A stretch of 64,000 bases of DNA from a bacterium (GCA_963674965.2 CAXXFL010000007.1:672001-736000); one strand, 5' to 3'. Counted from the stretch's first letter, positions 60,560 through 64,000 are shown. Notes: a model not told the origin generated them from the sequence alone. Translations and numbers: made by a program.

Positions 60560-61204
60560 GATAGGTCCTTTGGCCCCCGATCGGGCCTTTACGAATTATA
60601 GACCATTTTTCATGGCCGGTAAAAATCAAGTTGAGGACGGGGCAGCGAAAAACGGCGTGTCGTCCGGATGGCCCACCGGCCTCGGGATTTGATGGCGTTG
60701 GAAGAAAATCCCTTTGCCGACTCTCGGAGCCGATCTATTATCTTGCCGGCGCCGCCTTGGAAATCGTAAAGCGCGCTTATGGCGCGCGGAAAAAGAATCG
60801 ATTACCCGAGAAGTTTTGCAAGGGAACAAGCTGGACTTTCCACTTGGTTTGGGTCCGTCGAAACAAGGGAGATTATACCCCCACATGCACTGGATCCGGC
60901 AAAACCGCAGAATTTTCTTGCGGGCTAAGAGTGGAGCGTCTTGGGGATGGTCCCAAAAGGCCGCGTTGTTTTCCAATGTTCCCTTGTATTATAAGGGGCT
61001 ATTTTTTCTCGCGTTTTAAAAAAGATGATTATCCATTCGGTCAAAGGCGCGGCTTATTTTTCTAACCGTCCGGTATAATTATATTTTCCTCTTGAGAGGA
61101 ATTTAAAAAAAATATGCCAAGGGACTTGACAAGGTAATGTCCCTGTGTTAAATAGAATGTAAGAATCCGTATTGGATTCTCAAAAACTTTTAAGGAGGGA
61201 AACA

Positions 61205-61291
61205 ATGGAGTACACGACACCGACACTGAAAGAGCATGGAAAGCTGAAAACAACCGCCGCTGAGTCCACCACGGTAACCTACTACTGGTAA
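61205..61291 (+). CDS. RiPP precursor peptide, 28 aa (MEYTTPTLKEHGKLKTTAAESTTVTYYW), absent from the ORF track
   Basis: Strong SD TAAGGAGG at 61191-61198, YxxPxLxxxG RRE-binding leader motif, directly upstream of a PqqD/RRE gene. Confidence 0.85.
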   Translation: MEYTTPTLKEHGKLKTTAAESTTVTYYW

Positions 61292-61481
61292 TCGTAAGGT
61301 AGCGGCAAAAAACCGCAATGATCTGAACGGTAACTGAAAACTTATGATATAAGATCACCTTGATCGGCAGCTTGCGTTTGGACATTTATAAAAGGGATGG
61401 AGCGAGATAGTAATCCTAAACCACTCTAATCCCTTTTCTTGTCCATAAGACGGTTTTCGTTACACTAAGATCGACACCGCT

Positions 61482-61557
61482 TGAGGCAGGTTTCCTTGCC
61501 CGGCTTATAAAGCAGAGTCAAAACTCCGCTTTCAGGCTTGGCAAGGGGCCTGCTTCA
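61482..61557 (+). other. Long intergenic RNA hairpin between precursor and RRE genes
   Basis: TGAGGCAGGTTTCCTTGCC pairs with GGCAAGGGGCCTGCTTCA, continuing through GGCTT/AGGCT, AAAGC/GCTTT and GAGT/ACTC. Several G-U pairs favour the + strand. Confidence 0.6.
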
Positions 61558-61592
61558 TTCGGTTAAAACGACATGTATAACGGTATAATCCG

Positions 61593-61880
61593 ATGGAAAA
61601 ACAAGATATATTTCAAAAAGAAGACAGAATATCGTGGAAAAAAGTGGAGGATAACAAAAAGGTTATCATCCTTAACCTGGGCGATGGGGACTTCTTTTCG
61701 CTCGAGGACCAGGTAAGCATCATCATCTGGGAGCTATTGGTTGAAGGCAAGTCGGTCGGAGAAATACTCGAGAAACTGGCCCAGACTTTTTCGGGAGTAG
61801 AGGAAAAAAGACTCGAGGCCGACCTCGACGCTTTTCTCGAACGTCTGCTCGAAAAGAAGATCATCTGTAAAAGCGCTTGA
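61593..61880 (+). CDS. PqqD-family RiPP recognition element (lasso B1-like)
   Basis: 95 aa with IILNL..GDFFSL, IIWELL..GKSVGEI and DLDAFLERL...I motifs. Confidence 0.88.
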   Translation: MEKQDIFQKEDRISWKKVEDNKKVIILNLGDGDFFSLEDQVSIIIWELLVEGKSVGEILEKLAQTFSGVEEKRLEADLDAFLERLLEKKIICKSA

Positions 61881-63001
61881 GTAATAAAGGAAAAATCACG
61901 CCGGAGGATCGGGCGAGAATCCTTCTTCCCCTGCTGTTGCCCAAATCGCATGGACAGAGAAAGGATGAAGCCGAGTCGATACTGGGACAATCCGATTGGC
62001 TCAAAGCCGTGGGTGACGTGCATCTCGAGTCCGCCTTTTTTGCCTCTTTAAACGAATGGGGCCTGCTGGATAAATTGCGGCCGGAGATAAAGTCGAAGTT
62101 GGAATCGGCTTATAACGAAAACTCCGTCCGCCTTATGATTATCCAGGACCTTTTCGCCGAGGTCATAAAGACAATAAGTCCCCTTAAAAATCCCGCTCTC
62201 CTGTTAAAAGGCATCGGTTACTCTTACGAGCTTTACTCGGACCCGGCCGCCCGCTACGTGGGAGATATCGATATCATGCTGGGTCCGGACGATACCTGGC
62301 CCGCCATAGACAAGCTCACGGAAAAAGGATACCTGCGCCTGAAGCCTCCTCCCAAGAGGGGCGGGCTTATTAATATGCTGGTCTGGGCCGTGGGACTGGG
62401 GGTCCCCTATCAGCGGATGCTTCTTAAGATGAAAGGCCCCCAGGAGGAAAAGGAGACCGTGTTCGAGGCCAAGGCCGGCGGGTTGAAATTGCTTATCGAG
62501 GTACACCACGGACTGATTAATTTGCGGCCGGGCTCGGGCAAGGAAAAGGTCTTTCACGCCGAGGCGGATACGTCTTTCTCCACGCGGCCATTAACTCTGG
62601 ACGGTATAGAGGTACAGGTGCTCGACTATGAGGACGCCTTTATCCACGCCCTAAGGCATCTGGCCCTGCATCACCGTTTCATCGGTCTTCGTTGGCATCA
62701 GGACCTTGCCCTTATGCTGATCAAATGGGGCGACAAGCTCGATCCGGACTCTCTTTACGCCAAGTTCGAGAAGACCAACTCGACAAAAATACTTCGCGTG
62801 GAATTATCCATTCTGGAAGAGCTTTTCGGGTCGTCACTGTTCAAGGACCTTGACCCAGAAAAATGGTTTAAAGGCGATCTTCCCTTCGAGTACCCCTTTT
62901 ACAGGCGGGTGGCTTTCGGCGGGAAGCGCACTCCCATGCGGGAGCTTGTCAGGACCTTGTTGGCTCCAAGCTGGAAGGAAATGATCCGGACCCTCTTCTA
63001 A
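61877..63001 (+). CDS. Nucleotidyltransferase, NTP_transf_5-like
   Basis: LLLKG, Y...AARYVGDIDI, IEVHH, HLALH and WHQDL motifs. TTGA coupling to the RRE stop. Confidence 0.82.
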   Translation: MSNKGKITPEDRARILLPLLLPKSHGQRKDEAESILGQSDWLKAVGDVHLESAFFASLNEWGLLDKLRPEIKSKLESAYNENSVRLMIIQDLFAEVIKTISPLKNPALLLKGIGYSYELYSDPAARYVGDIDIMLGPDDTWPAIDKLTEKGYLRLKPPPKRGGLINMLVWAVGLGVPYQRMLLKMKGPQEEKETVFEAKAGGLKLLIEVHHGLINLRPGSGKEKVFHAEADTSFSTRPLTLDGIEVQVLDYEDAFIHALRHLALHHRFIGLRWHQDLALMLIKWGDKLDPDSLYAKFEKTNSTKILRVELSILEELFGSSLFKDLDPEKWFKGDLPFEYPFYRRVAFGGKRTPMRELVRTLLAPSWKEMIRTLF

Positions 63002-63121
63002 TCCACGAGGATGGCCTCGAAAGCTTGCCGCAAAGGATGTTTTTTGACTAACCGATCTTAACTAAAGTACAATATTAACGGTTGCCGTTTGTTAAGCGCT
63101 AGAGTAGTTTTCTTTGTCGCC

Positions 63122-64000
63122 ATGACTTCAAAAATAAAAAGATTCGTCTCCGATCCCGAGGGCAGGGTAAAGAGTATCCTGCAAAGGGGCGGTCCCGGGC
63201 AACGTTTCGACCTCTTTGGAATTCATATAAATCTTTTCACCGACTCCGAAAGGATAAGCGAGGAAGCAAGGCTTTTTTTAGGCTCACACGCGGCAAACTC
63301 GGGAGGTCGGGGATTCGACTTGTTTCTCAAGGAACTGACGGGGAAGGAAGGCGGGGAGCTTGCCGGTTCCCTGGTGGAAGAAGGCTTTAAGGCCCTACCC
63401 GTGGAGCACGGAGACCTCTTCATTACCACCGAGGGGGCCGCGCTTCTGGATACAAAAGAGAAAATCGCGGTCGGATCGGTCCTTGGCCGTCAGGAAAAGG
63501 GCGGGCCCAAAAAGGCGGCGTCAACCGTCTCCCTTTTGCATCTTCTGGCGCTGAGGATCATGGCCGGCCAGGGGTTCTTGCCCCTCCACGCCTCGGCGGT
63601 CCGGACTGAAAAAGGAGCGCTTGTCATGACCGGTGACTCAGGGGCGGGTAAGAGTAGCCTGTCCATAGCCCTTCACCGGCTGGGCATGCCCCTTTTAGCG
63701 GACGACCTGGTTTATCTTCACCTCTCGAGCGAAGGTCCCCTGGTGGGGGGACATTGCCAGCCGGCAAAACTTCTTTTATCCGACATGACTCCCGAGTTCG
63801 AGCCCCACCTGGCGCCCGAGCTCAACGCCAGGGTGGCCGGGAAAAAACTGATCGACGTGAGGTCGCTGAACCCCGAGTGCGCCAACGCGCTTTTTCCCGT
63901 CGAGGCCGTCATTTTCATCTCGAGCGAAAAGTCGGGTTCCCTCGAGGCCGCGCCTTTTTCCCATTCCGAGGCGATATTCCGCCTGCTCGATAGTTTTACC
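63122..64000 (+). CDS. HPr kinase-like P-loop kinase, partial (3' end outside window, absent from the ORF track)
   Basis: Reading from ATG 63122: MTSKIKRF...FLPLHASAV...GDSGAGKSSL...LLADDLV. Confidence 0.85.
   Translation, partial: MTSKIKRFVSDPEGRVKSILQRGGPGQRFDLFGIHINLFTDSERISEEARLFLGSHAANSGGRGFDLFLKELTGKEGGELAGSLVEEGFKALPVEHGDLFITTEGAALLDTKEKIAVGSVLGRQEKGGPKKAASTVSLLHLLALRIMAGQGFLPLHASAVRTEKGALVMTGDSGAGKSSLSIALHRLGMPLLADDLVYLHLSSEGPLVGGHCQPAKLLLSDMTPEFEPHLAPELNARVAGKKLIDVRSLNPECANALFPVEAVIFISSEKSGSLEAAPFSHSEAIFRLLDSFT

Follow-up and report, generated by a model that had tools for sequence, protein, structure and literature searches.

A candidate nine-gene RiPP operon that combines a lasso-type leader-handling pair with three radical SAM enzymes and a tyrosine- and threonine-rich core, in place of a lasso cyclase

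Lasso peptide clusters that carry a kinase are the closest described relatives of the locus studied here, a candidate operon for a peptide synthesized ribosomally and modified post-translationally (RiPP) that begins near the 3' end of a 64,000-nucleotide stretch of bacterial DNA (GCA_963674965.2, CAXXFL010000007.1:672001-736000; this whole stretch is hereafter the window). The split-B1/B2 clusters of paeninodin (PadeK), pseudomycoidin (PsmK/PsmN) and Bradymonas (BsfK) share with our locus a YxxPxL leader and a discrete B1 protein of the PqqD type, the RiPP recognition element (RRE), and also, according to those parts of the published accounts that treat the tailoring genes, a transglutaminase-like protease (B2 in those clusters, B2-like in ours), an HPr-kinase-like kinase that has residues of the His-Lys-Asp-Asp type, and a nucleotidyltransferase of the NTP_transf_5 type. 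In the sections of one source that deal with them, the lasso kinases are described by the motif His-Lys-Asp-Asp, the C-terminal Ser is the kinase target in paeninodin-type lasso peptides, and PsmK phosphorylates the peptide before PsmN adds hexoses (PMC9266682). BsfK, in the corresponding section of another, phosphorylates the internal Ser3 of its precursor with the help of B1 (PMC10368454). How widely the leader-handling proteins occur outside lasso pathways has been read conservatively: the relevant part of the RRE-Finder study reports about 4,000 of about 8,000 'lasso' RREs without peptidase plus cyclase, about 300 with a radical S-adenosylmethionine (SAM) gene, and treats such cases as false positives (PMC7470986), and the section of a 2023 review concerned with lasso B2 peptidases (C96 in MEROPS) assigns them to lasso peptides only (PMC10885120).

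In contrast to the kinase-bearing lasso clusters, our locus has no cyclase, most of its cores are without an acidic acceptor and none has a C-terminal Ser, the residue that probably occupies position -2 is an invariant Ala instead of Thr or Ile, and three radical SAM genes and a Kdo-type kinase gene are added. Based on these features and on the family described below, we assign a probability of about 0.72 to the reading that this is a nine-gene RiPP operon in which a lasso leader-handling pair operates without a lasso cyclase, in which a Tyr/Thr-rich core is modified by a radical SAM trio, kinases and a nucleotidyltransferase, and whose product is not a lasso peptide. This points to an undescribed kind of ribosomal natural product. 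Neither the gene set nor (YT)n precursors were found described in the full-text literature, a search whose scope ended short of subscription journals and supplements. The initial annotation of the window had proposed, from the DNA alone, a lasso-type leader on a non-lasso aromatic core accompanied by an RRE, a nucleotidyltransferase and an HPr-like kinase, and this proposal is supported across the whole family.

The operon runs unbroken on the + strand past position 64000, in the order precursor, RRE, NTP_transf_5 nucleotidyltransferase, HPr-kinase-like kinase, Kdo-type kinase, B12-binding radical SAM enzyme, B2-type protease, radical SAM 1 and radical SAM 2. Positions beyond the window are given on the extended locus L001 (contig 7, 732001-752000), on which a coordinate equals the window coordinate minus 60000. 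The precursor gene (61205..61291, ATG at 61205 and TAA at 61289-61291), called from its sequence and its conservation in the family, encodes 28 amino acids (aa), MEYTTPTLKEHGKLKTTAAESTTVTYYW, and stands 6 nt behind a Shine-Dalgarno sequence, AAGGAGG (61192..61198), read from the DNA. It is followed by the gene for the RRE, a PqqD-family leader-binding protein of the lasso B1 type (61593..61880, 95 aa; Pfam PqqD E 2.3e-13, 50.7 bits against a cut-off of 23.4), by the NTP_transf_5 gene (61877..63001, 374 aa with a GDIDIM motif; E 1.9e-32, 113.2 against 31.2 bits) and by the gene for the HPr-kinase-like P-loop kinase (63122..64000, cut by the window end and 150 nt longer, L001 3122-4150; Hpr_kinase_C 23.5 against 33.3 bits), which carries the P-loop GDSGAGKS and has an alternative TTG start at 63089. 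The initial annotation had listed this open reading frame (ORF) of 28 codons with its Shine-Dalgarno sequence and the three genes after it on the same strand, and all of them are present. It had also singled out the DNA beyond 64000 as the place to look for a peptidase and further modifying enzymes. There we found, all on the + strand, a second kinase of the Kdo/WaaP type (L001 4132-5049, 305 aa; Pfam Kdo 41.6 against 21.3 bits), a B12-binding radical SAM enzyme (L001 5059-6372, 437 aa; Pfam B12-binding and Radical_SAM, top NCBIfam match ApyD), a lasso-B2-like cysteine protease of the transglutaminase fold (L001 6369-6866, 165 aa; Transglut_core3 27.5 against 26 bits), radical SAM 1 (L001 6859-7803, 314 aa) and radical SAM 2 (L001 7808-9331, 507 aa), the last two matching Pfam Radical_SAM and having a Cys-rich C-terminal part. 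The statement that neither a cyclase nor a B2 protease occurs in the window holds for the window itself, but a B2-like protease is encoded 2.4 kb beyond its end.

Related clusters were located by several routes. In the protein collection we found 24 relatives of the NTP_transf_5 protein, 39-49% identical to it, and with their alignment 15 metagenome loci (L014-L028) with related clusters were found. A pattern scan of 185,579 species genomes, likewise made with this alignment and the outcome of which depends on the patterns chosen, returned a single match, a syntenic locus (L013) in a Verrucomicrobiales metagenome-assembled genome (MAG). With the window proteins as tblastn queries, the same gene order from RRE to radical SAM 2 was recovered at 27-58% identity, and the genes lying beyond the window end are 27-48% identical in those syntenic loci that reach that far. 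Seven loci extend past the Kdo-type kinase gene. Five of them (L013, L018, L019, L024 and L026) hold the full order, including the B12-binding radical SAM gene, B2, radical SAM 1 and, where the sequence continues, radical SAM 2; L018 is cut off after radical SAM 1. In the other two, L022 and L023, which are one sequence in two records, the Kdo-type kinase gene is followed directly by B2, and no radical SAM gene lies anywhere in their 12.7-13.0 kb. This minimal variant (L022 6689-10992, and L023) consists of precursor, RRE, NTP_transf_5, HPr-kinase-like kinase, Kdo-type kinase and B2, after which comes an acyltransferase-like ORF. The system is rare and patchy: the NTP_transf_5 profile hit 1 of 401 genomes sampled from the phylum of the MAG, namely the MAG itself, radical SAM 1 was not found (E <= 1e-10) in 12 genomes of the same family, order or class, and among 40 relatives searched it gave one match, to the N-terminal part only, in a distant genome. 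In L018 an ORF about 3.5 kb 5' of the precursor (55-639) resembles by eye a further B2-type protease (...GHCWLTLNG...).

The precursor gene is conserved with the enzymes. A small ORF with the same leader stands before the RRE gene in 12 of the 12 related loci that have DNA 5' of it, ending 70-430 nt before the RRE gene, so that the conservation beside homologous RRE genes on which the initial proposal depended is indeed found. The leader consensus over these loci is [YF]xxPxLK[KS]HGKLKxxA, and Y/F-x-x-P-x-L-K-x-H-G-K-L-K is present in all 10 aligned precursors. We compared 16 leader codons among nine distinct sequences (36 pairs) and counted 233 synonymous against 125 non-synonymous differences overall. 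At the nine invariant leader residues (P, L, K, H, G, K, L, K and A) the counts are 179 and 0, and by codon position the differences in the leader number 107, 96 and 290. The 179-to-0 pattern and the excess at third positions argue that the frame is translated and under purifying selection; judged by these codons, the 28-codon ORF is a real conserved gene, far beyond what chance would give. A regular-expression scan of the whole genome found no second precursor of the HGKLK type. The kilobase that contains the precursor gene and the spacer behind it (61001-62000) has 43.7% G+C, as compared with 53-65% across the rest of the 20 kb. One metagenome locus (L028 1320-3040) holds a degraded or mis-assembled copy of the cluster, with a precursor that is frameshifted after KLK, leaving the core out of frame, an RRE shortened to 49 aa and, of NTP_transf_5, no more than the final third.

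A profile of the precursor retrieved 49 further peptides of 44-75 aa from a collection of 5.8 billion proteins, all of them unnamed or annotated 'hypothetical protein'. Taking as core the residues after HGKLKxxA, these and the window's peptide give 50 sequences with 40 distinct cores, which are 10-18 aa long, contain 2-8 Tyr and are composed of 33% Thr, 25% Tyr, 12% Val and 9% Ser. The motif Y-x-[YWF] occurs in 48 of the 50, mostly as YTY, YTYTY or YTYTYTY. The conserved feature of the aromatic core, which had been read as YYW in the window, is Y-x-Y/W, mostly in YTY repeats, and not YYW as such; the window's own peptide (leader YTTPTLKEHGKLKTTA(A), core (A)ESTTVTYYW) belongs to a small branch, P0222-P0225, whose leaders contain PTL and whose cores end in ...TYY[YW]. 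Asp and Glu are absent from 35 of the 40 distinct cores, and the single Glu of the window's core is at position 1 or 2. The last residue is T in 21 cores, L in 5, Y and V in 3 each, W and I in 2 each and M, F, R and G in 1 each, but never Ser (0 of 40), and Cys is found in none of the 40 Tyr-type cores. The second position after the invariant Ala is Gln, Glu or Asp in 31 of 40 cores (Gln in 27), a site that in most cores lies 3-6 residues before the first Tyr.

The minimal variant L022/L023 is instructive in this respect. Its core, STWQDKSGCLPGIVN, has no Y-x-Y and contains one Cys, and this variant without Y-x-Y is also the only one without all three radical SAM genes, with RRE, both kinases, nucleotidyltransferase and B2 retained. 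This natural experiment, as read from the sequences, suggests that the radical SAM trio and Y-x-Y are linked, and it is the best evidence for what the trio acts on.

The two leader-handling proteins resemble their lasso counterparts. A profile built from nine RREs has as its top match among solved structures the lasso B1 protein TbiB1 (E 1.4e-8), followed by two further lasso B1 proteins and a chain named only 'PqqD family protein', and 8 and 7 of the nine RREs, respectively, match the two NCBIfam lasso PqqD models, all below the cut-offs. We also modelled the RRE-leader complex, a step that the initial annotation had suggested, and the outcome agrees with it: the RRE-precursor model scored 0.70 as compared with 0.01 for the best of three controls; of 157 solved complexes 116 attain that mark, as against 2 of 215 mismatched pairs. 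At least 79% of contacts are common to the runs, the predicted local distance difference test score (pLDDT) of the partner is at least 57, and the confident contacts join residues 11-26 of the precursor, exactly TMEYTTPTLKEHGKLK, to residues 31-42 and 64-90 of the RRE. As a prediction, this supports binding of the leader motif by the RRE, although the pass may reflect likeness to known complexes because lasso B1-leader complexes have already been solved. For the B2-like proteins, NCBIfam lasso_biosyn_B2 is the sole family matched, by 6 of 6 homologues (the operon's own protein at 23 bits against a cut-off of 33), and Cys98 and His133 are invariant. Searches with the fold returned weak transglutaminase- or papain-like matches (Foldseek E>=0.027; VIA Z 5.3, root mean square deviation 2.7, 82 residues aligned), and a sequence search of the PDB gave nothing significant with the protein alone or as a profile. 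Part of the published work on lasso leaders sets out a ruler (Tyr-17, Pro-14, Leu-12; PMC10368454). Applied here, it places the invariant Ala at -2, the position of protease specificity, and the cut one residue later, leaving in the window a core of 9 aa, ESTTVTYYW. By this analogy, B2 would cut one residue after the invariant Ala, or possibly directly before or after the Ala; under the ruler, the earlier placement of Thr at -2, with a core of about 10-11 aa, would give way to Ala at -2.

The chemistry of the core would depend on the tailoring enzymes, of which the three radical SAM enzymes fall far below the cut-offs of all curated families. The B12-binding radical SAM enzyme has as its best NCBIfam match ApyD (NF050148; residues 19-420, 213.9 bits against a cut-off of 750), which is reported, in the portion of the literature that describes it, to form beta-methyl-tyrosine. 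By sequence, the best PDB matches are 9ccb for the B12 enzyme (E 9.5e-20), BlsE for radical SAM 1 (E 1.6e-5) and PqqE for radical SAM 2 (E 6.2e-7). With family scores so low and structures so distant, the reactions of the three enzymes are unreadable from homology. Radical SAM 1 belongs to a large family without a curated name, from which 272 representatives match it at E<=1e-30 and the top one is 38% identical, and the ESM Atlas returned only 'radical SAM protein' clusters. Some of its relatives are fused proteins of 650-1577 aa with additional radical SAM domains, and P0029, P0085, P0061 and P0174 carry two or three such domains in 754-1577 aa; when two of the fused proteins were compared with radical SAM 2 and the B12 enzyme by BLASTP, only the generic cluster-binding region aligned, and no Rosetta-stone link appeared.

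Parallels to the core exist among RiPPs that carry aromatic cross-links, such as the biphenomycin-like products of PbsB, the triceptides, darobactin and dynobactin, and the P450-made cittilin and biarylitides. With these the locus shares aromatic-x-aromatic units (YTY, YYW) and the presence in one operon of a B12-binding radical SAM enzyme and SPASM/twitch-type radical SAM enzymes. The triceptides, in which a 3-CyFE radical SAM/SPASM enzyme cross-links an aromatic-x-x motif, are likened here by that motif, which is present as Y-x-[YWF] in 48 of 50 cores. The B12-binding enzyme PbsB forms a Tyr-Tyr biaryl bond, also on an engineered YTY sequence, as stated in the part of its description that covers its substrates (PMC12257519), and it is likened to our enzyme by described activity and not by sequence. 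The locus differs from this group in having no multinuclear non-heme iron oxidase (MNIO), P450 or TldD protease, in its lasso-type leader system and in its tandem units with up to 8 Tyr; the scores against curated families are likewise far apart (ApyD 213.9 against 750 bits, DynA 33.3 against 450).

The other three tailoring proteins are kinases and a nucleotidyltransferase. In the HPr-kinase-like protein, H156, K177 (in the P-loop), D194 and D195 are invariant in 7 homologues, which fits the His-Lys-Asp-Asp motif of lasso kinases at the level of the motif. The predicted structure of the NTP_transf_5 protein (pLDDT 86.5) has the minimal nucleotidyltransferase fold, with MenT1 as best match (E 8e-4) and TM1012, JHP933, ANT(2'')-Ia and LnuA also found (TM-score 0.6-0.67 on the target), and its G-x-G...D-I-D motif is invariant among relatives. 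Several of these fold relatives adenylylate hydroxyl groups. The Kdo-type kinase resembles the kinase domains of LanKC and LanL over 50-70 residues only (24.9 against 575 and 16.8 against 650 bits). A dehydration of the class III/IV lanthipeptide kind was considered and rejected, as the operon has no lyase or cyclase domain and none of the 40 Tyr-type cores contains Cys.

Part of the locus also appears in RNA libraries. A word index placed small shares of the stretch in such libraries, and contigs from four libraries of four studies (X3-X6, one per library, 249-326 nt and at least 99% alike) cover the + strand stretch 61176..61486, that is, the precursor ORF and about 190 nt on its 3' side. 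Their individual spans are 61176-61476, 61200-61480, 61227-61475 and 61239-61486. The X3 contig, with a depth of 99, ends at 61476 in letters that we take to be Illumina adapter, and X4-X6 all depart from the window at two places, with A>G at 61388 and an extra A after 61306, both outside the ORF. Over the RRE and NTP_transf_5 genes there is no contig in the four libraries, an absence from which nothing follows. The intergenic spacer between precursor and RRE (61292..61592, + strand) is highly structured, with a fold z-score of -5.98 and 0 of 100 shuffles as stable, and all four contigs stop at or just before the 5' foot of a long, nearly perfect hairpin at about 61483-61560 (GAGGCAGGTTTCCTTGCC ... 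GGCAAGGGGCCTGCTTC), just 5' of the RRE gene. No Rfam family matches the spacer, which gave one sub-threshold hairpin match to a plant miRNA precursor model. Of 7 relatives tested, 5 have a GC-rich hairpin with a U-run behind it at the corresponding position. The spacer is a possible attenuator or terminator, and hairpin plus U-run is the layout that would be usual for a precursor made in excess over its enzymes. Between 60900 and 61700 a consensus scan showed neither a promoter nor a terminator on the + strand; by eye, a TTGACA at 61126-61131 is followed, after a gap of 17 nt, by TAAATA preceded by TG.

Could the locus be an ordinary kinase-tailored lasso cluster of the paeninodin or pseudomycoidin type, with its cyclase encoded elsewhere in the genome? 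The YxxPxL leader, with RRE, B2, HPr-kinase-like kinase and NTP_transf_5 as the accessory set that the relevant sections of PMC9266682 give for such clusters, would fit, and two long Asn_synthase homologues are encoded on contigs C1 and C4. We nevertheless regard this as very improbable. No cyclase of the asparagine-synthetase type is found among the nine operon genes, nearby or in the syntenic loci, and in every full locus its position in the operon is held by the three radical SAM genes. Four matches to Asn_synthase occur in the genome, spread over contigs C1, C4 and C3 with none on C7; the two long ones are not beside any B1 or B2 gene, and the four are not beside the two other Transglut_core3 genes either. 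The 4.8-Mb assembly of the syntenic Verrucomicrobiales MAG (completeness not given) contains 0 Asn_synthase matches. Of the features of a lasso pathway, the YxxPxL leader with a B1-type RRE is present (10 aligned precursors, the TbiB1 match and the complex model); a cyclase is absent, and Asp/Glu at core position 7-9 is no feature of the family. The lack of a cyclase, together with 35 of 40 cores without an Asp/Glu acceptor, excludes a lasso macrolactam, and the lack of any core ending in Ser excludes C-terminal Ser phosphorylation of the PadeK type, both of which had looked impossible in the initial annotation. Even less credible is the idea that the short RNA is a non-coding regulator and its 28-codon frame incidental. 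It draws on the RNA-library contigs, which cover a discrete stretch, about 300 nt long, whose 3' part is highly structured, and it is countered by conservation as protein (179 against 0, and the third-position excess), by the strong Shine-Dalgarno sequence, by the missing Rfam match and by the docking of the leader on the RRE in the model.

Two further explanations accept a peptide and differ about what becomes of it. That the radical SAM enzymes alone modify it, with kinases and nucleotidyltransferase serving immunity, regulation or another substrate, is unlikely in our view. The weak or generic family matches behind the kinase and nucleotidyltransferase assignments would allow for it, and nothing in the cores corresponds regularly to the Ser known from lasso kinases (C-terminal, or Ser3 in BsfA); but these genes are kept in order between RRE and protease in every locus, their retention in the minimal variant argues that they belong to the peptide pathway itself, the cores are rich in hydroxyl acceptors (33% Thr, 25% Tyr and 9% Ser), and the catalytic-type residues are invariant. 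We also think it quite improbable that the peptide gives rise to a small redox cofactor, in the manner of pyrroloquinoline quinone (PQQ) or mycofactocin, in which case a PqqE-like radical SAM enzyme would join Tyr and Gln/Glu, the protease would trim the result and a phosphate or nucleotide handle would be attached. PQQ biosynthesis (PqqA/D/E) does share with the locus a PqqD-type chaperone through which a peptide with Tyr and Glu/Gln reaches a SPASM radical SAM enzyme; radical SAM 2 has its best matches in PqqE, the second residue after the invariant Ala is Gln, Glu or Asp in 31 of 40 cores and in most lies 3-6 residues before the first Tyr, the operon has no conserved exporter beside it, and kinases plus nucleotidyltransferase could build a nucleotide handle. 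However, the variable core length (10-18 aa) and Tyr number (2-8) are typical of secondary metabolites and unlike fixed cofactor precursors, and the repetitive cores, lasso-type leader, protease, kinases and nucleotidyltransferase set the locus apart from PQQ. The equivalog cut-offs are far from reached (PqqD TIGR03859 23.9 against 46; PqqE TIGR02109 45.4 against 381.35 for radical SAM 2), no partner dehydrogenase is conserved nearby, and the system is rare and patchily distributed (found in 1 genome out of 401 from the phylum of the MAG and in none of the 12 closest relatives of this genome).

Cassettes with a partly similar content are the SynChlorMet cassette (ScmC/D/E/F), the HPr-rel-A system and GeoRSP, all defined in silico, which like our operon combine two radical SAM/SPASM proteins with a chaperone of the PqqD family and a protein related to HPr kinase. 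The operon's proteins match their models weakly (ScmC 14.6 against 125 bits, ScmD 23.5 against 100, ScmF 30.5 against 400, HprK_rel_A 30.2 against 200 and PqqD_rel_X 14.7 against 35; also geo_PqqD). To our knowledge, none of these cassettes includes a B2 protease, a B12-binding radical SAM enzyme or a Kdo-type kinase.

Returning to the RiPP operon in which the lasso leader-handling pair is used without a cyclase, several observations weigh against it. The RRE and the B2 protease are below the NCBIfam lasso cut-offs, the HPr-kinase-like protein is below its Pfam cut-off (23.5 against 33.3), and all three radical SAM enzymes are far below every curated family cut-off and without a close solved relative. 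The three residues after HGKLK are STA, NTA, NKA, SAA and others, so the Thr at -2 that is the usual lasso mark is not conserved. The window's precursor is without the Lys/Glu-rich N-terminal stretch of about 20 residues that all others have, and no conserved exporter adjoins the operon here or in the related loci. The link between trio and Y-x-Y depends on a single variant lineage. The RNA-library contigs, which do not show strand, ends or level and come from libraries in which DNA may be present, support the expression of the precursor and do not prove it. Finally, every chemical step is inferred, and no product has been observed.

With these reservations, the following pathway can be proposed. 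The precursor would be made from its own short, abundant transcript, with attenuation by the structured spacer, and the RRE would bind the leader motif YxxPxLKxHGKLK, as homology to TbiB1 and the complex model suggest. The three radical SAM enzymes may then act on the leader-held core at its Y-x-Y/W units, judging from co-occurrence and from precedents, and could cross-link Tyr-x-Tyr(Trp) through carbon-carbon or aryl-C-beta bonds, introduce C-methyl groups, or do both. By analogy with BsfK/PsmK and PsmN, the two kinases would phosphorylate Ser, Thr or Tyr hydroxyls and the nucleotidyltransferase would add a nucleotidyl or sugar group. Finally, once activated by the complex of RRE and leader, the B2 protease would cut one residue past the invariant Ala, as in the lasso ruler, and release a product of 9-18 residues that mostly begins with Gln and in this genome with Glu. 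The initial annotation had left a choice between a linear and a cross-linked modified peptide. With three radical SAM genes in the operon, a merely linear phosphorylated peptide becomes less likely than a cross-linked or methylated one, so that only the latter half of the earlier suggestion is favoured.

A more far-reaching version of this pathway, which we advance tentatively and at somewhat short of even odds, would make it a new RiPP class. A B1/B2 pair uncoupled from its cyclase would here serve a radical SAM trio that joins the Tyr-Thr-Tyr units, which stand in tandem, into a ladder made up of small aromatic rings, decorated with phosphate and a nucleotide or sugar, on a peptide highly expressed in sediment and wastewater communities. 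Leaving these details aside, the product of the pathway has a fair chance of defining a new RiPP class. The locus opens the way to a family that is coherent, conserved and apparently expressed and that would put the lasso B1/B2 pair to another chemistry, with about 60 precursor sequences, a clear substrate motif, (YT)n, and a natural variant that ties the radical SAM trio to this motif. It may serve as an entry to new radical SAM reactions on tyrosine, to the role of NTP_transf_5 proteins in peptide pathways and to the re-use of leader-recognition modules between RiPP classes. The predicted rigid, Tyr-rich, cross-linked products resemble in outline the biphenomycin, darobactin and arylomycin scaffolds, a likeness of form from which we claim no activity.

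Two neighbouring features of the same genome may be added. Directly after radical SAM 2, also on the + strand, lies a gene for a WD40-repeat protein of 756 aa with a hydrophobic N-terminal segment (L001 9411-11681, equivalent to window positions 69411-71681); it is not present at the corresponding place in the related loci. On contig 6 (1064053-1064385, minus strand; L006 1450-1959), a second lasso-B2-like Transglut_core3 protein of 169 aa is encoded (E 1.2e-16). There is no cyclase at that locus, its neighbours are, by eye, a sulfotransferase-like ORF and a beta-propeller protein, and it may represent another cyclase-free peptide cassette.

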